From: Octopus vulgaris
Taxonomy: Eukaryota
Direction of reading: 5' to 3'
NCBI GenBank assembly: GCA_951406725.2
Contig: OX597823.1
Location: forward strand, 13,268,001-13,332,000
DNA: 64,000 nucleotides
Shown here: positions 5,451 to 59,940 of the stretch, piece by piece
Layout of the letters: each line of letters starts with the position of its first letter
Position numbering within the stretch: the stretch's first letter is position 1
Notes under the pieces: model-generated
Told to the model about the DNA's origin: nothing
Database searches by the model: none
What the model saw: only the letters and a program-made list of their open reading frames with translations
Position numbers and translations under genes: made by a program

Positions 5451-6432
5451 GGAACTTTACCTTTTGACCGGCAGATTTAGAAAATAATTTTTTGTAACTA
5501 AACACTTTCAAACTTCGTATACTGGTAGAACGTGTCATATAAAACATGTTTTACTCTTAGCGTTTTTTGTGGAAAGTTTATGTTTACGAAGTTATTTCGT
5601 GCTAAAGTTCTCGTATTTCGGTAATTTCAACTAATTAATAACGTGTATTCAGCTGAATAAAATTATTGCTATTGTTTGTCAACAACAACTTCCGGCGGTG
5701 TATATTTCGTTTGTCACTGTTATTTATGGCATATTTCATCTTAGTTATGTTTGTATGAATAAACGAGTGTATCTGAAGCACGTTTACTTCATGGCATCAC
5801 CATAATCGTTTGTGCATTTCTATTGCTTTTAGCTATTTTTCTTGTTTTTCAGCTACTATTTTCGGAAAGACTTTTTGGACCTACCTACCCCTACCCCTCC
5901 AATTTCTTCATTTTTCATTTTTACCGTAACTCTAACCCTAAAACCCCCAAGTTTAACCCTTACCCTAAAGCCTTAACCCTAACCCTAACCCTAAAACCCT
6001 AATCCTAACACTAAAACTCTAACCCTAACCCTAACCCTAACTCTAAAACCCTAACCCTAACCCTAAAACCCTAACCCTAAAACCCTAAACCTAACCCTAA
6101 CCGTAACCCTAGAACCCCAACCTTAAAGATAAAACCAGTACAAACGCACGAACGATGTCATAAATAACAATGACAAATGAAGAATACACCGCCGATAGTT
6201 GTCGACAAACAACGACAGTAATTTTATTCAGCTGAATACACGTCATTGATTGGTTGAAATTACCGAAATACGAGAACTTTAACATGAAATAACTTCTTAA
6301 ACATAAACTTTTCTCAAAAACGCTAAGAGTAAAATATGTTTATATGACACATTCTACCAGTGTCCGAAGTTTGAAAGTGTTTAGTTACAAAAAAATTATT
6401 TTCTAAATCTGCCGGTCAAAAGGTAAAGAACC
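5451..6432. mobile_element. Non-autonomous MULE/foldback-like DNA transposon with ~300-bp TIRs and 9-bp TSD
   Basis: About 5451-5755 and 6138-6432 are inverted repeats (ggaactttaccttttgaccggcagatttag / ctaaatctgccggtcaaaaggtaaagaacc); caatggtag is duplicated at 5442-5450 and 6433-6441. Confidence 0.88.
5925..6125. repeat. Interstitial telomere-like (CCCTAA)n array with CCCTAAAA variants
   Basis: accctaaccctaaaaccctaa... repeats lying between the two TIRs. Confidence 0.92.
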
Positions 6433-21158: not shown

Positions 21159-22009
21159 ATATATAAGTACTCGACTTAACAATACTAATTATCAATGTGT
21201 CGCCTTGTGTATGAAATGTGTGAGAGATGCATCAGATCCGAGAGTAAACAATGTAGATTCAGATATTTGCAAAACGTGAAGAGTTCCCCGCTGGTTCTGT
21301 GTATAAATGCAACGAAAAATTTGATTTTATACGTCGGTGGTTTCCGGAATCTAAATCGCTGGTACAGTGGTTTGATAACGAATATATCTAAAGAGAGAAT
21401 GGTTACATACACTGTAAAGGGAGTACTACACCGGATATATTCTGAATGCCACGTTACTTTACAACAAGAGACGATGCTAAAACGCACACACTGACAGACA
21501 GACAGACCCACACAATCCACACACATATATATGTATATAACGCACGACTTGAGCGAGTGCTTTTTAACGTTTATTGTTGATCTTTATGGTCTTCCCATTC
21601 TTTCGATTACACTGAGCTGATTTAATGTGCTTCAAACAATAACACCATGCAGCTAATAAGGTAACTGTGCCAGTACATAATAAAATATATCAATAAAGCT
21701 TTTCTGTGATTCAATATTTATTGATTATGGAGAGAAACATTACAAAGTCTCAAATATTACATGGTTACTGATGTAAATGAAATGATAGAAATTTGTTGCT
21801 GTCTAACTTCATCACGAAAGAGATACAACACACACACACACACACACACACACACGTACGTTTCGTCTATCTATCCACATGTGTGTTTATGTGTGCATAT
21901 ATATATATATATATATATAATTTTAATCCAAACGGGAAACAAAAAAACAACAACAAGGGAACAATTACAGTATTATTATTAATAGGCGCTCAGGAAATGG
22001 AAGCAGGGA

Positions 22010-22046
22010 GGTATGACGTTTCGAGCGGAGCTCTTCGTCGGAAACA
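22010..22046 (-). ncRNA. Minimal PLE hammerhead motif (degenerate core)
   Basis: CCGACGA a gagc-tcc-gctc GAAA cgtc; stem I weak. Confidence 0.6.
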
Positions 22047-22214
22047 TAAAGAAGGAAGAGAGAGGAAAGAAAGATCCCGGAGCGGGCAACGGAGATAGAG
22101 AAAAAAACGGCTGGTGTTAGCAGAAGCACATGGTGAAAGGCGGATGTTTACGATAACAAGAGCAAAGTGGGTTTTTAAAGGCAAAAGAGTGGAGACAAGG
22201 TTGGTAACGCAACA

Positions 22215-24910
22215 GATGTGTGTGTATGTGTGAGTGTGTGCGTGTGCGTGTGTGTATGTGTGTGTGTGAGGCGAGGTAAAAAAAACAAAAAATATATGTA
22301 TGTGTTAGTGTGTGCGTCTGTGTGTAGGCGTGTGAGGTAGGGCGAGACGGTGGTCAGCATAGCAGCAGCATAGCAGACAAAGGTCAGTAGTGAGAAAAGG
22401 GAGGAAGGAGGAAGGGAGGGAGGGGAAGGGGTGGGGGCGTATGTAGCGTGCCAGCGTGTGTTGAGTAGTAGTGTGTGTGTGTGTCCAGTGTCGTGGTAGT
22501 ATTAGTGGCGAGTAGATTGAATGTGTGTAAGAGTGATGTATATGTTTAAGCAATGTGTGTATATGTGTGCGCGTGTGTGTAACGAAAAAAAAGGGGGGGG
22601 GTTTAGGAAAAGGACTCCAGCGGAGGGGAAGATGGAGGAGTGGTCCCGCGGAGACGGGCGTGGGAAAACCCAACGACAAGCGACATCCCAGGAACGGGCG
22701 GGAGGTCTCGTCGGATCCAAGGGCGAGGTGCATGCGGGCGCATGCGTGCGCGAACCGGCGCAAACGCGTGTGTGCGCGAGCCTGCGAGTGTGCGCGTACG
22801 TATGTGTGCGTGTGGATGTGTGAGTGTGTCTGTGTGTATGTCTGGGTGGCAGTGTGTCCGATGAATGTATGTGAGTATGTGTGTATATATGTGTGTGCAT
22901 AGATGTATGTCCGTGTGTGTGTGTGTGTGTGTATGTGTGTATGAGTGTGTATGTATGTACGTGTGGGTGTGGGGAAGTGTGTGTATGTGCATGTGTGTGC
23001 GCGAACATACAGGTGTGTGAGTGAGTGCGTGTGTGTGTATGTATGTGTGAGTGTGTATGTATGTGTGTGTAGGATGCATGTATGTGTATGGGTGTATGTA
23101 TGCGTGTGTGTATGTATGTATGTGTACGTGCGTGTGTGTGTGTGTATGCGTGTAGGTGTGCGCGTGTGCATGCGTGCATGTATGTGCGTATGTGTGTGTG
23201 TGTGCATGTGTGTGGGTATATATGTGTGTGCGTATATGTGTGTGTATGTGCGTACATGTGTGTGTGTGTGCATGTGTGTGTGTAGGTGTGTAGGCGTGTG
23301 TGTATAGGTGTATGTATGTAAGTATGTATGGGTGTGTCCGTGTATGTGTGTATGTATGTGTGTGTATGTAGCTGTGTGGGCGTGTGTATATGTGTGTGTA
23401 TGTAGGTGTGTAGGCGTGTGTATATAGGTGTATGTATGTATGTCTGGGTGTGTCCGTGCATGTTTGTGTGTGTGTGTGTGTGCATGTGTATGTAGGTGTG
23501 TGTGTACGTGTGTAATGTATGTGTGTATGCGTGTGTATGCGTGCGTGTGTGTATGTAGGTGCGTGTGTATGTGTGTGGGAGTGTAGGTGTGTGTGTGCGT
23601 GTGCGTGTTTATGTTGGTGTGTGCGTATGTGAGTGTGAGTGTATGAGTGTTTGTCATGCATGTGTGTGCGCGTGCAGGTGAGTGTGTGTGTAAGTATGTG
23701 TGTGTGTATGTTTGTGTGAGTGTGTATGTGTGTATGTCTGTGTGTATGTATGTGCGTATAGGAGTATGTAGGTATGTGTGTGTGTATGTATATGGGTGTA
23801 TGTATGTGTGTGTGTGTGCATGTGTATAAGTATATGCGTGTGTGCGTATGTGTGTGTATGTGTATGTGTGTGTGTTTATGTATGTGTGTATGTATGTGTG
23901 TAGGCGTGAGTGTGTAGATGTATCTATGTATGGGTGTGTGTCAGTGTGTGTTTGTGTGTGTGTAGGTAGATGTGTGTGTCTGAGTGAGGGTATGGCTGTG
24001 TAGGTGTGTGTGTGTATGAATGTAAGTGTGTGCGTATACAAGTGTAATGTATGTATGTGGGTGTGTGTGTGTGTGTATGTGTACGTGTGCGTGTGTATGT
24101 GTGTGTGTGTATGCGTGTGAGTGTGGGTGTATGGGTGTATGTCTGTGTGTGTGTATGTCTGAAGTGGGTATGTGTGTGTATGTATGTATGTGTGTGTGTG
24201 TGCGGGTATGTGTGTGTGTGTATGTGTGTGTGTGAGTAGGTGTGCGTGTATGTATGTGGGTAGGGATGCATGCGAGTGTGTGGGTATGTATGCAAACTTA
24301 CGCAAGCGCACATCCGAAGCAAGCCCACACACACGAAGCGCGCTCACGCACACAACGCACAAGCAGTGCAACGCAAGCCCAAAGGGGCCGACCGAGCCCC
24401 AGCGCGCGCCAAGGCGCGCGAGCGCAAAGGCCCTCGAACGCCCCGCTACGCGGGAACCGAGGATCCATCAGCCAAAACCGGAAAGCAGAAAAGAGGGGGG
24501 CTGCCTGGATGCAAAAAGGTGTATGTGTGTGTGCATTCAGTGTACGGGTGTGCATGTGTGGGTATGTATGTATGTATGTGCCTACATGTATGTGTGCATG
24601 TGTGTGTGTGTGAGGTATGTACGTGCGGTGTGTGTGTGTGAGTGTGTGTGTATGTATGTGCGTATGTATGTGTGTGTGTATGTGTGTATGTATGTGTGTG
24701 TGTGTGTGTGTGTAAGTATGTATGCGTGTGTGTATGTATGTGTGTGTGTATGTGCATGTGTGTCTGTAAGTGTGTGTGATTAAATGTGTGAATGTATGTA
24801 CGTAGATGGGTCTACGTATGTGTGTGTGTGAACAGGCGTGTGGGAGGTAGGTAGGTGGGTGGGAGGTAGGTGGGTGGGAGGTAGGTGGGTGGGTGTGTGT
24901 GGGTGGTGTG
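22215..24910. repeat. ~2.7-kb cryptic (TG/TATG)n low-complexity tract
   Basis: Directly visible; interrupted by two T-depleted islands. Confidence 0.92.
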
Positions 24911-24948: not shown

Positions 24949-26430
24949 TCAAGAGGAGGGGGCTGTGTTAAGTCCGTGTGGGGTGGTAGTTTGTAGGGTG
25001 AAGATGTAGCGTTGCTCCAAGTGGAGTCTGGAAAGTGGGCGACCATTGTGGGGGGCGAGACCAAACACTGAGATGTCATCTCGGGAATGGCCGGCCGAGC
25101 GGAAGTGGCGTGCGACGGGAGAAAAAGAGTGTAGGCGAACGTCCCTCAAGTGTTCAGTGAAACGGTCGGACAACCGGCGTCCCGTCTGACCTACATACAG
25201 CATCCCGCATAGGTTGCATTTAATGCAGTAAATAAGGACAGACGAGGTGCACGTAAAAGAGTGCCTAATGCGTACAGTATGCAGGTTGGAGCCGGTGACA
25301 GCGGTGGTGTTGGTGATGAAGGGGCAAGTGTTGCAGCGGGATCTAGAGCAAGGGAATGATCCGTGTGGGGCTGAGGGGGAAGGGGAGAGGGTGCTGTGGA
25401 CCAGGAGGTCACGCAGATTGCGGGCTCGTTTGAAAGAGGACAGGGGTGGGTTAGGGAAAATGGGGCGGGTGGTGGGATCAAGCTGGAGGCGACGGAAGGC
25501 ACGTAGTATCTTGCGACGAAGGGGTAGGGTAGAGGGGTGGAAAAGGAGGGGGAAGGGGGTGCGGTTGGGGGGTGGGCGGGGGGAAGGAGACAAGGCGGTA
25601 GTGCGGTCGATGCGACGGGCGCGGGTGAGGGCATCAGAGAGGAGTGTGGGTGGGTAACCTCGGAGTCTGAACATGCGGGCCAGGTATTGAGATTGGGTCT
25701 CGAAATCCTGGTCGCGGCTGCACAAACGTCGGAGGCGGAGGAACTGGGAGTAGGGGATGGCTCGTTTGGTGTGGAAGGGGTGGGAGGAAGAGAAGTTGAG
25801 ATAGAGGTGGGAATCCGTAGGTTTAAAGAAGGCGGTGGTGGTGAGAGAGCTGGAGGGGTGATCGATGCGGAGAGAGATGTCAAGGAAGTTGACAGAGGTG
25901 TTGGAGATGGTGGAGGTGAATTGAAGAGAGGGGTGAAAGTTGGAAAGGAAAGAGATGAATTGGCCGAGACGTTCCCGGGAAAGGGAGGTGGCACCTACAC
26001 AGTCGTCGATATAGCGACCGTATAGTTCGGGGGTCGGCCCAGAGAACTGGGAGAACACTTGGGCCTCAATGTAGCCAAGAAAGAGATTGGCGAAATTGGG
26101 GCCCATCCTAGTTCCCATCGCGACCCCGGACACCTGTTGGTACGTTTCCCCGGCGAACGTGAAGCAATTGAGGGTGAGGACGAGCTCAGCCAAACGGAGA
26201 AGGGTGGGGGTGCTGGGGGTGGGGTCGGGACGACGGTCGAGGAAGTGTTGGAGGGCTAGGAGACCGTCATTGTGGGGAATCACTGTGTACAGGGATTTTA
26301 CATCTAAGGTGAAGAGGAGGTGTGAGGGGCTGGAAGGGAAGGAAAAGGAATTGAAGAGACGGAGGGCGTGGTTGGTGTCGTGTATGTGGGATGGGAGGGC
26401 TGCGACTAGGGGGGACAGGATGCGGTCGAG
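24949..26430 (-). CDS. Penelope-like RT (C-terminal part) + GIY-YIG endonuclease, 5'-truncated
   Basis: GVAMGTRMGP, YGRYIDD, FLDI, SSSHP, CSRSRCNTC Neptune-type linker, LIYCIKC..LYVGQT, HLRDV; frame extends upstream of the called Met (LDVKSLYTVIP). Confidence 0.92.
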   Translation of the reverse strand, partial: LDRILSPLVAALPSHIHDTNHALRLFNSFSFPSSPSHLLFTLDVKSLYTVIPHNDGLLALQHFLDRRPDPTPSTPTLLRLAELVLTLNCFTFAGETYQQVSGVAMGTRMGPNFANLFLGYIEAQVFSQFSGPTPELYGRYIDDCVGATSLSRERLGQFISFLSNFHPSLQFTSTISNTSVNFLDISLRIDHPSSSLTTTAFFKPTDSHLYLNFSSSHPFHTKRAIPYSQFLRLRRLCSRDQDFETQSQYLARMFRLRGYPPTLLSDALTRARRIDRTTALSPSPRPPPNRTPFPLLFHPSTLPLRRKILRAFRRLQLDPTTRPIFPNPPLSSFKRARNLRDLLVHSTLSPSPSAPHGSFPCSRSRCNTCPFITNTTAVTGSNLHTVRIRHSFTCTSSVLIYCIKCNLCGMLYVGQTGRRLSDRFTEHLRDVRLHSFSPVARHFRSAGHSRDDISVFGLAPHNGRPLSRLHLEQRYIFTLQTTTPHGLNTAPSS

Positions 26431-26673
26431 ATATATATATATATAATAGAAATATTAAAATTACTAAGTCTCTCTAAAAGAGAACACGGCAGCGTTCCTG
26501 GAAATTAATAGTTATCGCCATACTAATATGGCATTCTTATAAAAATAAGAATAAAGCTGTCCGCTTATTAGCTCCATGAGGCCATCGCCTTAAGTTAGCT
26601 ATTTGATACATTAACAGTATCCATATAACCTTCGAACAAGGGAGGTCAGTCGCTCCACACTACTTGATCGACA

Positions 26674-26715
26674 GCTACAGACGCGTTTCGGGGTATTGCC
26701 CCTTGTCAATGTAGC
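26674..26715 (-). ncRNA. Type I hammerhead, U3-A8 core
   Basis: gctaca TTGACAA gggg-caata-cccc GAAA cgcGTC tgtagc; 6-bp stem I, 4-bp stem II, palindromic acgcgt stem III. Confidence 0.82.
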
Positions 26716-27035
26716 GTAGTCAGACCAGTAGGTGTCGCTTCCGACTATCTCTGTTCGAAGGTTTTATTTACCTAGTTTCGGTGGAATACATCCACTTGTT
26801 TTCAATAATAGAAATATTAAAATTACTAAGTCTCTCTAAAAGAGAACACGGCAGCGTTCCTGGAAATTAATAGTTATCGCCATACTAATATGGCATTCTT
26901 ATAAAAATAAGAATAAAGCTGTCCGCTTATTAGCTCCATGAGGCCATCGCCTTAAGTTAGCTATTTGATACACAAACTGTATCCATATAACCTTCGAACA
27001 AGGGAGGTCAATCGCTCCACACTACTTGATCGACA

Positions 27036-27077
27036 GCTACAGACGCGTTTCGGGGTATTGCCTCTTGTCAATGTAGC
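27036..27077 (-). ncRNA. Second copy of the U3-A8 hammerhead
   Basis: Same fold 362 nt away; one stem II mismatch (gagg/cccc). Confidence 0.78.
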
Positions 27078-27203
27078 GTAATTCGAAGGTTATATGGATA
27101 CAGTTTGTGTATCAAATAGCTAACTTAAGGCGATGGCCTCATGGAGCTAATAAGCGGACAGCTTTATTCTTATTTTTATAAGAATGCCATATTAGTGTGG
27201 CGA

Positions 27204-27247
<44 letters not shown>

Positions 27248-40137: not shown

Positions 40138-41070
40138 TTAACGCCGCCAATGGGGGCATCGAAAAGCCGACTGTAAAAGTCCGTTTACCATCCGGTCTCT
40201 GGCGAACAATATATGGAAGAGTTCAGAGACACAAAGGTTGCACTTCCTTCTGCCCCTATCAAATGGGAGGGCCACCGACAAAATTGACCATTCCAGCCTG
40301 TAGCTTGAGTTCGTATCCTTCAATCGCCATATTAGCTTGCTGAGTCCCGTGGTCTGGCGTTTATTCATGTCTCGAAAAGTTGCGTAATGATTGGAGATTC
40401 GCAAAGCCAATCTTGACGATGAGGCCCCTACATAAGCGTAGACATCTGAGTCCGTATAAACCTTGCATTGGTAGACGGCGTTTCTGATCTTGGAGTTCGC
40501 CGACGTGAATCTTATTCTGCTAGGATTAGTTTCTGAAATTAGAACTGCGTTACTGTCACTATATTTGTTACGAGAACTGCAGCCGCTTACTACTTTATTT
40601 TCCACTACGTCACTATTAACTAACGGAATAACCCCTGATTCTCCACTATCTATCAGAGTGCTGTCATTGCTAGTGCCCGTGGTGCTGCTATTGCAGGAAA
40701 TGATGCTGGGGTTGCTATTGGGACTCTCTACCCTACTCCCATTGTTACCGTCAACTACAACACCCCTATTTATAACTATACCCCCAGTGTGTAATCCCTG
40801 GCTGGAGCTGAGATTATGAGTCACTGTACTGGCTCTCATATCATTATTACTACTATAATTATTCCTACTGAGCATTAAACCGGGAGCGGAAGAGGCTGTG
40901 CCTCCGGAAAACGGTGATAGGGTCTTAGTAAGCAGCCTATTATTATGGGAGGCGATTAACTGGGTGAGGTTTTTAGTGTTGGAGAAAGCTATCCTAACTT
41001 TATGCGAGTTAACCGTGGAGTAATATTTGGAATTTCTGGGGAAGTTATTGGCGATGGCTTGTCTAAACAT
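40138..41070 (-). CDS. PLE linker + GIY-YIG endonuclease (Hydra-type), no RT in this copy
   Basis: NNFP..KVRIAFSNTKNL..SHNN linker; AVY..AYVG, RISNH..F, TGLSKLIWRLK, WSIL, CNLC..E. Confidence 0.82.
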   Translation of the reverse strand: MFRQAIANNFPRNSKYYSTVNSHKVRIAFSNTKNLTQLIASHNNRLLTKTLSPFSGGTASSAPGLMLSRNNYSSNNDMRASTVTHNLSSSQGLHTGGIVINRGVVVDGNNGSRVESPNSNPSIISCNSSTTGTSNDSTLIDSGESGVIPLVNSDVVENKVVSGCSSRNKYSDSNAVLISETNPSRIRFTSANSKIRNAVYQCKVYTDSDVYAYVGASSSRLALRISNHYATFRDMNKRQTTGLSKLIWRLKDTNSSYRLEWSILSVALPFDRGRRKCNLCVSELFHILFARDRMVNGLLQSAFRCPHWRR

Positions 41071-41701
41071 GAGGGGGAGGTTAGTTCTAATCTGCTTACC
41101 AAAGGGAATTACAAACCATATATGCTTATTCCTATCTGTGTGATGGGTCGGGACGCCAGCTCTCGCATTCGGGTGGGTGATTCTCGGATGAATAAGGGTT
41201 TTGGGTTAGTGTGAGATCTCCCGGACCGATAATTATCCTTGTTCGCTAAATTAAATGCGGGAGCGATTTATTTAGCGCTTTCAGCTGATTTTTGAAGAAA
41301 AATTCATGAATTATATATATATGTGATTGAATCGGGAAGAGAATGTTCTTTCTTATTTTGAATGTATATGCAAATGTTTTCTACCCCTTGACGGAGTTCT
41401 TGCCAACCTGCGCCAGCACACATATATAGAACAGTAAACACACACATGTCTCTAAGTAGATTTTTTCTCGCCCCTTATAATACATCCAATATTCCTTAAA
41501 TAGTCAGAACTTTATTCTCGGTCATAAAGAACATCTACACACCCTCACCCACAGGAATGACCGCTGCCTGACCCGTTAAAATCTTCAACCACCGGTTCTC
41601 AACATACACTGATAAACAGTTTTGCCATGGGCTCTTAGGAGCCTAGTTCGATTTGTTTTGCTCCGCCTCTGTTCTGTTTTTGTTTTTTCCAACGGATTTC
41701 C

Positions 41702-57343: not shown

Positions 57344-59497
57344 TTAATTGTTTGTCGTAGACCCGTTAAGAAGTGGCTTGTATTTTGTAATAAAGAGATT
57401 TTCTTTACTTATTCTTTGTCTCGAGGTTGTATCGTCCCTAAATTGGTAGAGGGGGAAAATTCTGAAGTTTGGTGTTTTTTTGTTGGCGCAAGTATCTATG
57501 TGTTGGCTAAAAGCTATTTTTCTGTTTTGGGGAATTTTTATCTGGGATCTGTGCAGGGCCATTCGTTTACGCAAACCATTTTTTGTTTGGCCTATGTACT
57601 GCTCTTGACACCCGGAGCAGGTTAGTGAGTATATTAGGTTCTCCGAAGCACATGTGAAGTTGCTTTTCACTGTAAACCGTTGTCCCTGTTTGAAGGAGAA
57701 CTCCGAACCCTCGATTAGATAGTCGCATATCCCGCAATTGGGTCTTCCACATTTTTTTACTGTCGGCTTCTGTGTTGAAGAGTGAATTCGGGCTTGTGTA
57801 AGGAGACTTTTCATGGATCTAGGCTGTCTTTTGCTTTTTATGATCGTGTGTGTTTGGAGGATTGTGTTCATTCTGTGGTCTTTTTTTAGGAGGGGTATGT
57901 TGTGGAGGATGGTGTCGAAGGCTTCGTTATTGAGAGGGTTGTGTGTGGAGATGTATGGTAAGGCTTTTGGTTGTAAGTTTTTCTTTGATTTGGGATGTCT
58001 CAGTTCCTTGATGTTAAGTTGAAGGGCACGTTGAATGCACTTGTCAATAAGTGAAGGTGGATAGTTCCTGGTGATTAGGGTATCTTTTAGTTCTTGTAGT
58101 CGTGTGTCTCTGGTGTTTGCGTTAGAGACTATAGTGCATATCCTTTTTGCTAGATTGAAGGGGATATTCATCCTGGTGTGTCTGGGGTGGCATGAATTGA
58201 ATGGAAGATATTGCTTAGAGTCTGTAGGCTTATAGTATATGTCTGTTTCTATTATATTATTAGCTTTCTTAATGAGGATATCGAGGAAGGGGAGTTGTTG
58301 TTGGCTATATTCCATCGTGAATTGGATGTTTACGTCCAGTCCGTTTAAAATTTTCTGGAATTCTATGAGTTTTTCTATATTTTTATGCCAAAGGATGAAA
58401 CAGTCATCTAGATATCTCTTCCAGTTGTTTTCTATGTAGATGGAGAAAGGGCTGCCATATCTTTCTAGAACCTTACGATACAGACTGATCTCTAGGTATC
58501 CTATGACTAGGTTGGCAAAGGAGGGGGCCATTCGTGTACCCATCGCAGTCCCCGATTTTTGTCGGTAGAAGTTGTCATTGAAGGCGAAGAAGTTATTTTC
58601 CAGGATGAATTTAACCCCTTCTATCACAAATTCTTTTTTGATGCGGTGTGGTAGTTCGTTGGCGTGATTCTCTAGCCAGAATTGGATTGCCTCTAGTCCT
58701 AGGTTGTGGGGGATATTGGAGTAGAGGTTGACTACATCGAAGGATACCAGTATTGTGTTTTTGTTTATAGTATTCGGTAGGTGATTGAGCATATCTAAGT
58801 CGTCCCTTATATAGCTTTTGACATGTTTGAGGAGTGGTTTTAACAGGGTGTCTAAAAAGTTACTGAGGCGGTGGGTTTCGCATGCGGGACCTGCTATTAT
58901 GGGTCTCAATTTGAGGTCATTAGGATTAGGGACTTTAATTATTTTGTCTGTAGCTATCTTGCATGCGTTGCTTATTTTTTCACTTTTGTGGATCTTAGGT
59001 ATACCGTAGAATTGGCTAGTTTTACTTGTGAAATTGGTCATATAATCATATTCTTTGTCGGTGAGCCCTGCTTTGTATGGGTTTAATATGGATTTTAGTT
59101 CCCTCATTATTTTTTGTTGACTGTAGTTTTGTGCCTTTTCATAGTATGTTGTGTCTTCCAGCATAGAAAGTACCAAAGTTATGTAAAATGTCGTATCCAT
59201 TAAGACAACAGCACTCCCTTTATCGGCCTCTTTGATTGTTATTGTTTTATCTAGTTTTAATTTGTTCAACTCAGCCCATTCTTTTTTGCTGAAGTTTGGT
59301 TTGTGTTTTTGTTTGTGCATATGTTGATATGGGTAATTTGATATGTGGTCACAGAAATCATCAAGTGTTTTATTCTTACCTTTCGAGGGGGTGTAGTTAC
59401 TCCTATTTCTGGCTAACGATTCGTCCTCGTTGTATTTATCGTATAGCTCCTCAGTAAGTCTTAATTTTCTGCAGAATTCTGCGATGTCTTCTTTCAT
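57344..59497 (-). CDS. Penelope-like reverse transcriptase + GIY-YIG endonuclease (frame open upstream to ~59698)
   Basis: EADKG, PKIHK, RPII, FDVVNLY, GTAMG, RYLDD, FLDI, SCHP, CGRPNCGIC linker, LIY..YIGQT; uninterrupted 717 aa. Confidence 0.96.
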   Translation of the reverse strand: MKEDIAEFCRKLRLTEELYDKYNEDESLARNRSNYTPSKGKNKTLDDFCDHISNYPYQHMHKQKHKPNFSKKEWAELNKLKLDKTITIKEADKGSAVVLMDTTFYITLVLSMLEDTTYYEKAQNYSQQKIMRELKSILNPYKAGLTDKEYDYMTNFTSKTSQFYGIPKIHKSEKISNACKIATDKIIKVPNPNDLKLRPIIAGPACETHRLSNFLDTLLKPLLKHVKSYIRDDLDMLNHLPNTINKNTILVSFDVVNLYSNIPHNLGLEAIQFWLENHANELPHRIKKEFVIEGVKFILENNFFAFNDNFYRQKSGTAMGTRMAPSFANLVIGYLEISLYRKVLERYGSPFSIYIENNWKRYLDDCFILWHKNIEKLIEFQKILNGLDVNIQFTMEYSQQQLPFLDILIKKANNIIETDIYYKPTDSKQYLPFNSCHPRHTRMNIPFNLAKRICTIVSNANTRDTRLQELKDTLITRNYPPSLIDKCIQRALQLNIKELRHPKSKKNLQPKALPYISTHNPLNNEAFDTILHNIPLLKKDHRMNTILQTHTIIKSKRQPRSMKSLLTQARIHSSTQKPTVKKCGRPNCGICDYLIEGSEFSFKQGQRFTVKSNFTCASENLIYSLTCSGCQEQYIGQTKNGLRKRMALHRSQIKIPQNRKIAFSQHIDTCANKKTPNFRIFPLYQFRDDTTSRQRISKENLFITKYKPLLNGSTTNN

Positions 59498-59634
59498 TTC
59501 ATTGTAGTTGGGGTGTTGTGGGGTGGGTGTAAACTTGAGTCCTTTGGAAAGTATGTTTATTTGGTTTGCTGTTAGTTCCTTGTGAGTTAGATTAATAATT
59601 TTTATTACTTTTGGTTCCTCCTGCTTGTTTGGTG

Positions 59635-59940
59635 CTATCTTGTGTCTCTGTGTTTGCGTATTGGGTCTAAAAAATGAATGCGGTGGTTGGGACGGTAGCT
59701 AGTATATAGTTGTTCTTTGTTGATTAGGGGTCTCCTGTTGTGATTTGTGGTGTGTGTTCTTGGAGCAGTATTGAGGAGAGCATCCCGATATCCCATATTC
59801 GGGTGTGGTGTTCTAGGAGGCCTTCGTTGGTAATCATTGCAAGTGGTGTGGGTTTGTTGTGCATGGTTGTTTAACCGGTTAATGGGACGAAGATTTCGTT
59901 GGTAACTCCTTTGGGTGGGGATGAGGTTGCAGTGTCTATG
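59635..59940 (-). CDS. 3' end of an upstream basic ORF/N-terminal region of the PLE, 5'-truncated
   Basis: Open R/H/N/P-rich frame ending HFLDPIRKHRDTR*, overlapping the RT frame in -1. Confidence 0.55.
   Translation of the reverse strand, partial: HRHCNLIPTQRSYQRNLRPINRLNNHAQQTHTTCNDYQRRPPRTPHPNMGYRDALLNTAPRTHTTNHNRRPLINKEQLYTSYRPNHRIHFLDPIRKHRDTR

Follow-up and report, generated by a model that had tools for sequence, protein, structure and literature searches.

Within the window, a 64,000-nucleotide stretch of the Octopus vulgaris contig OX597823.1, the T-depleted island at 22621-22796 raises the question whether its composition records adenosine editing of an RNA template and, if so, of which molecule. 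From the letters alone, the preliminary description counted 19 T in the island, all followed by G or C, and proposed a hyper-edited segment of the template of a minus-strand element. The recount bore out the 19 T (next base G in 13, C in 6, A or T in 0) and the absence of TA and TT. The longest TA/TT-free run of the 64 kb is 22605-22797 (193 nt); the second, 24300-24447, lies inside the other island (arm 1, below). In the GT-repeat flank 156 of 610 T precede A or T, and at this comparison rate P = 0.0037 was obtained for 19 of 19 T without a following A or T; mononucleotide shuffles gave P = 0.00077 for the T context of the island; both values are inflated because the island borders were set where TA ends. 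Inside the element the run amounts to 20 consecutive T not standing before A or T, compared with 14 in the next longest.

The island is part of a 5'-truncated copy of a young Penelope-like element (minus strand; its two ends lie at 21897 and 26435, and other copies are 98.7–99.6% identical to it over ~4.5 kb), the full unit of which is ~6.2 kb long and is found in tandem elsewhere in the genome (2.8 Gb in 227 contigs searched). The copy holds the 3' half of a single ORF (24949-26435, minus strand) with RT, a CX4CxxC linker and a GIY-YIG endonuclease; the full copy encodes 949 aa and was matched by Pfam RVT_1 (E 0.001) and GIY-YIG (E 0.011), both below cut-off; relatives of the element carry PF00078, PF26215 and, in some, PF01541. 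Judged from its sequence, with a single ORF in which RT is followed by a C-terminal GIY-YIG domain and with weak Pfam scores, the element is assigned to the EN+ Penelope-like elements (PLEs). Both 5' truncation and tandem arrangement, as in EN+ PLEs, are present (truncated copies; 6.2-kb tandems), and by its motif the linker would be compatible with the CX2-5CxxC of the Neptune/Nematis type. The 3' UTR (~3 kb) contains arm 1 (24292-24512, minus strand), an inverted copy of arm 2 that is G-rich and A-poor (12 A in 221 nt); the still A-rich (CA/CATA)n repeats between the arms (22810-24291, minus strand; ~1.5 kb); and arm 2 (22614-22809, minus strand), which includes the island and would be an original UTR segment with inherited A>G changes. 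Near the 3' end of the element (22014-22047, minus strand) there is a minimal motif with C in place of a core U, which we take to be hammerhead-like by its match to the hammerhead consensus; the same pattern was found in 14 of 24 copies of sister subfamily O (below), and its fold was not significant (z −1.4). An Rfam search gave no match to a hammerhead family and no known RNA family for the island, the matches being sub-threshold and repeat-driven.

Other features of the window were recorded along with the element. Adjoining its truncated 5' end, 26449-27210 consists of a direct repeat (~26449-26800 and 26809-27080) and an inverted piece, each repeat having on the minus strand a motif that we presume, by its pattern, to be hammerhead-like; the region is probably the end of another Penelope-like element. 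A second Penelope-like ORF (57344-59698, minus strand; 784 aa; RVT_1 and GIY-YIG) is 29% identical to the first; an open frame of 355 aa at 40138-41205 (minus strand) had no Pfam match; and a degenerate interstitial (TAACCC)n array occupies 5923-6127.

The island was found to be common to the family. All 40 scored matches to 22560-22830 (of 890 candidates) were 98–100% identical; since such a sample favors copies like that of the window, 40 copies were chosen by ORF alone instead, and 38 of these carried the island with 0–9 differences per 176 nt. Matches to the ORF end mark the family as young (98–100% identity in all 150 that were scored). Its consensus carries the same C-rich sequence, the outcome that the preliminary description had named as refuting, and alignment to this consensus gave no A>G cluster setting the copy in the window apart; the copy itself was thus not edited. 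An assembly artefact, likewise named there, is ruled out by the identity of the 40 genome matches and by contigs from 4 of 4 public runs, which span the island (all 29 bins covered). In these contigs, which drop rare variants, no T>C variant at 3% was listed over arm 2; over arm 1, of three runs that are possibly RNA, two gave no contig and one gave a single contig. Private A>G changes in the arms of young copies were not in excess (2/406 and 1/942 A-copies, 3/1348 in total, vs 5/6248 at the 3' end). One contig of run X12 starts at 24496, at a G run, behind adapter-like sequence that presumably is a cDNA template-switch adapter; antisense transcription beginning there, or an artefact of strand invasion, may account for it. 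Of the hyper-edited template, the direction (A>G on the sense strand) holds and the agent remains most likely ADAR; the edited molecule would have been an ancestor, from which, on comparison with the sister subfamilies below, the family consensus most likely descends.

On the sense strand arm 1 is predicted to pair with arm 2 in 148 pairs (102 G-C, 28 A-U, 18 G·U). The duplex was computed at −213 kcal/mol vs −140 ± 7 kcal/mol for 200 dinucleotide shuffles (z −10), and its non-repeat half by itself gave z −5.3; of its 31 symmetric mismatches, 25 set two pyrimidines opposite each other. Folding of 2 kb put the colinear duplex (−282.2) level with an alternative (−283.7) retaining part of the arm-arm pairing (outer helices). 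For all 25 two-arm copies examined, which come from subfamilies 88–99% identical in the ORF where measured, a duplex of −205 to −326 kcal/mol was predicted. The G·U share of pairs was 12% in the copy of the window vs 20–26% in the oldest sets, with A·C mismatches mostly few. Arm 1 by itself (24395-24480, minus strand) is predicted to fold locally into a long hairpin (−105 kcal/mol, z −1.6), a competitor of the long-range duplex. A side branch, L046:2500-4270 (G000:C15) and the set L081-L086, has a longer duplex (219 pairs, 53 G·U): upstream of arm 1 lies a G-enriched stretch, whose pairing partner is a GT-repeat stretch on the downstream side of arm 2. A second round of extension and editing may lie behind it. 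When 24 UTRs were scanned for long-range repeats, most matches were local or outside the element, and the scan served as a lead only. In one copy, L057, of an island-less sister subfamily, a near-perfect 225-bp inversion of CA-rich UTR was found (offsets 391-619 and 1487-1719) with G·U in 6 of 225 pairs; inversions of the UTR of the element thus arise and begin unedited.

The ancestral state of the arms was read from sister subfamily O, in which arm 2 is present and A-rich and arm 1 is missing in 24 of 24 copies (best inverted match 41–51 vs 205–270 forward, n = 24); the entire span back to the ORF end is included in 14 of the 24, and further sister subfamilies have neither island. Over the 137-nt core of O, this subfamily was compared with the oldest two-arm set, in which 13 copies represent arm 2 and 4 represent arm 1. 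In arm 2, A>G was found at 13 of 31 As and made up 13 of 26 changes; arm 1, scored along its own RNA strand, gave 23 of 46 As and 23 of 34 changes; pooled, 36 of 60 changes were A>G, at 36 of 77 As. C>U, the other route to a G·U pair, was observed in the arms at 0/52. In control regions of the same subfamilies A>G was found at 4 of 187 As in total (0/26 over the 70 nt adjoining arm 2 downstream; 2/51 at the UTR end; 2/110 in the ORF, one copy), giving Fisher P = 1.5e-18 for arms vs controls. The changes are thereby confined to the arms, on the RNA strands of both, which are predicted to pair, and the loop between them is A-rich. With the closest sister copy, L136, as reference, A>G was counted at 14/35 As (arm 2) and 22/42 As (arm 1). 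A further 7 of the 34 changes in arm 1 are A>U, most of them within a run of A, and ADAR does not account for these.

A mirror test was made over 127 positions, of which 76 are identical in O and both arms and 45 are changed in one arm only; at 33 of the 45 the change is A>G on the RNA strand of the changed arm, the other arm keeping the base of O. The polarity is fixed by this result (A ancestral), and CpG decay in O is excluded. When O was aligned directly to the middle or young subfamilies, misalignment resulted, and these subfamilies were linked to it via intermediate ones; G/A-tolerant alignment of the present-day non-repeat arm halves to the island-less sisters was no better than that of shuffles. 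Apparent A>G clusters in the loops of L144 (27) and L156 (8) were rejected as misalignments over repeat deletions. Among the early copies examined (arm 2 n = 34, arm 1 n = 13) there was no unedited or half-edited two-arm copy, so that the inverted duplication and the editing were not caught as separate steps; in a search with the oldest arm 1 only itself matched at >84% over most of the query, and no unedited two-arm copy was recognized.

The changes belong to a short branch. A tree of the ORF was built from 45 copies, with a family of 66% protein identity as the root (L055, L124, L126 and L137 were left out for short cover; the oldest two-arm set is the single copy L088 both in the tree and in the ORF control). 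In it the two-arm copies are monophyletic (support 100), nested in O and sister to L136 (98); the stem of this clade, which includes the present-day family, measures 0.019 substitutions per site. Over 86 As the early copies are bimodal: 43 As are changed in ≥60% of copies, 38 in ≤20%, and 5 are intermediate. By parsimony 46 of 66 changes at the origin step are A>G; over all later steps A>G makes up 14 of 156 and U>C leads with 54 of 156.

The extent of change (36/77 and 43/86 As) lies at ~40–50%, and ADAR on perfect dsRNA of >50 bp stops at ~50% of As according to the available text of PMC11019741, in which the preferences of human ADAR1 are given as 5' U>A>C>G and 3' G>C~A>U. Founding edits by 5' neighbor were U 8/20, A 12/24, C 21/34 and G 2/7, the order U>A>C being absent; 5' G was lowest (1/6; 2/7) without significance (P = 0.09 and 0.27 in two counts). 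Before a 3' U editing was reduced (9/31 vs 34/54, P = 0.003; P = 0.13 after the outer 12 nt were dropped), and As before 3' G were not edited more than those before 3' C. Low 3' U and low 5' G run in the direction of the ADAR1 preferences; neighbor preference overall is weak.

The preliminary description had taken the context of the surviving As as a sign of ADAR; the pattern as counted stands, and as an argument it is weak, the founding edits being without the 5' U>A>C order. Only 9 of the 19 surviving sense As of the island align to an ancestral A, so the pattern is mostly a later product. Of the 45 sense Gs in the island, 35 could be aligned to a base of O and 17 of these 35 are A there; 12 of the 17 fall in 22731-22767, the example stretch of the preliminary description, where repeats leave the alignment ambiguous. 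By the parsimony counts above, much of the present-day composition arose after the origin, U>C leading the later changes.

ADAR hyper-editing of an ancestral dsRNA, fixed in the master lineage, very probably explains the G-for-A composition of the arms, as far as sequence comparison can tell. The course proposed would begin with arm 2 alone and A-rich, as in the sister subfamily; an inverted duplication would have put arm 1 ~0.7–1.5 kb upstream and given the transcript a near-perfect duplex of at least 200 bp; along a short branch ADAR would have deaminated about half of the As on both arms, whether at once or over a few rounds; the RT of the element would have read inosine as G, and the product would have been integrated in the germline or early embryo. 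Such a founder would account for every two-arm subfamily, the present-day family included, standing in one clade. Afterwards the duplex stayed above random expectation in computed stability as its G·U share fell, presumably by selection. Profile matches to A_deamin were obtained at four loci of the genome.

Two other explanations are about equally improbable. In the first, strongly disfavored, no editing took place, and gradual RT or DNA mutation with selection for a G·U-tolerant sense-strand duplex shaped the arms. Selection appears to act, the duplex having been kept beyond chance after its origin; the arms evolve faster than the ORF, and the context bias is weak, all of which fit this course. 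Selection for pairing, however, permits C>U too, yet in the arms 36 A>G stand against 0 C>U, and in the UTR-end and ORF controls C>T exceeds A>G; moreover, with a threefold rate allowed, P is still 1e-23 for 36 of 77 As changing along the stem of 0.019, and A>G drops to the later share given above once the origin is past. The second supposes A>G hypermutation by an agent other than ADAR (an RT error burst or another deaminase) of the structured region during one reverse transcription, with which the absent canonical 5' order and the A>U changes accompanying the burst agree. Against it, the changes end at the arm limits (none of the 26 As in the 70 nt downstream of arm 2, and a loop that is A-rich), and ~50% of As are changed on the RNA strand of both arms, as for ADAR on perfect dsRNA in the available part of PMC11019741 and for a retroviral inverted repeat in that of PMC12925331.

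Reversed polarity, in which the G-rich state is old and O, having dropped arm 1, changed G>A through CpG decay or an APOBEC-like process, is contradicted and less probable still: the O copies are old and many sites read CAC vs CGC, i.e., in CpG context, but loss of one arm with decay cannot make O equal to the unchanged arm at 45 positions, many changes are AA>GG or UA>UG, old two-arm copies have G·U far above A·C mismatches, and the two-arm clade sits inside O. That the copy in the window alone derived from freshly hyper-edited RNA, for which the T depletion and its context as observed would speak, is refuted by the 40 of 40 top matches at 98–100% identity and the island shared by 38 of 40 ORF-chosen copies.

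After the proposed ADAR event the duplex was remodeled. The G·U share fell from 49/180 (27%) to 19/150 (13%) of pairs. When the observed substitutions were placed at random, −162 ± 9 kcal/mol was obtained, and the real −221.6 was reached in 0 of 300 runs; in three other subfamily pairs the real duplex energy was likewise reached in 0 of 300; the starting point was a sister consensus, not the true ancestor, and the model was without conserved blocks. With the real duplex beyond all 300 random placements, it looks maintained. Of the edited founding pairs, 9 of 30 are now G-C; specific compensation was not found in the comparison of U>C opposite edited Gs (14/30) with U>C opposite unedited As (10/27; P = 0.59). 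Founding pairs are now mismatched at 55 of 137, and 20 of 27 unedited founding As have since been lost, mostly to C or U. The present role is likely that of a stable, A-poor, mismatch-broken helix that would close the CA-repeat loop and be a poor substrate for ADAR. The wider reading, that one ADAR event written to the germline by the RT of the element founded the present-day intact high-copy family and that selection kept the edited duplex as a new functional RNA element, is one on which we consider the evidence evenly balanced; if it is true, host editing made a heritable cis-element rather than disabling the transposon.

At the sequence level these data are evidence that A-to-I editing may be heritable via retrotransposition and may shape transposon subfamilies, with ancestor-like copies, intermediates and controls all within one genome; ADAR activity on the element RNA in the germline or early embryo and an RT reading inosine as G would be implied. 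A test of copy vs consensus overlooks edits inherited by a whole family; a screen for inverted repeats in transposon consensuses with an excess of sense-strand G·U pairs and a single-arm sister is suggested. A full-text literature search, judged on titles and abstract openings and covering few subscription papers, returned no report of an ADAR burst fixed in a master transposon lineage. A 2016 review, in its available text, called a role of ADAR in Alu subfamily evolution logical but undetermined (PMC4982230).

The closest parallel is avian retroviral DNA with fixed ADAR hyper-editing, namely the U3 of Rous-associated virus and an inverted repeat of avian leukosis virus (Hajjar and Linial 1995; Felder 1994; both as cited in the available part of PMC12925331): there, too, an inverted repeat in a reverse-transcribed RNA shows nearly 50% A→G, visible in DNA. 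In contrast to these viruses, the Octopus element is a non-viral retrotransposon in an animal genome and the change is inherited; the edited molecule would have given rise to a line of at least six subfamilies in succession, ending in the one that is intact at present, along which the repeat was kept and remodeled. With inverted Alu pairs, as described in the accessible portions of PMC4982230 and PMC11019741, the element shares a long intramolecular 3' UTR duplex (predicted), probable editing of both arms and the ~50% ceiling, whereas Alu edits, on the same sources, remain in RNA. As with APOBEC3 G-to-A editing (PMC2873906, in part), a host deaminase would have marked retroelement DNA with clustered substitutions of a single type; the direction is opposite, and APOBEC3 is described there as acting on cDNA after reverse transcription, an RNA duplex being unneeded. 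With the EN+ PLEs of Neptune/Nematis type, as far as the available text of PMC8557442 describes them, the element has in common the ORF of RT and C-terminal GIY-YIG, the CX2-5CxxC linker, 5' truncation, tandem copies and microsatellite insertion. In the PLEs of that source inverted 5'-truncated copies flank the insertion, whereas the duplex of the Octopus element is an inherited part of its UTR; unlike the EN+ PLEs described, this element has a 3-kb CA-repeat 3' UTR with an internal inverted repeat that was, very probably, edited.
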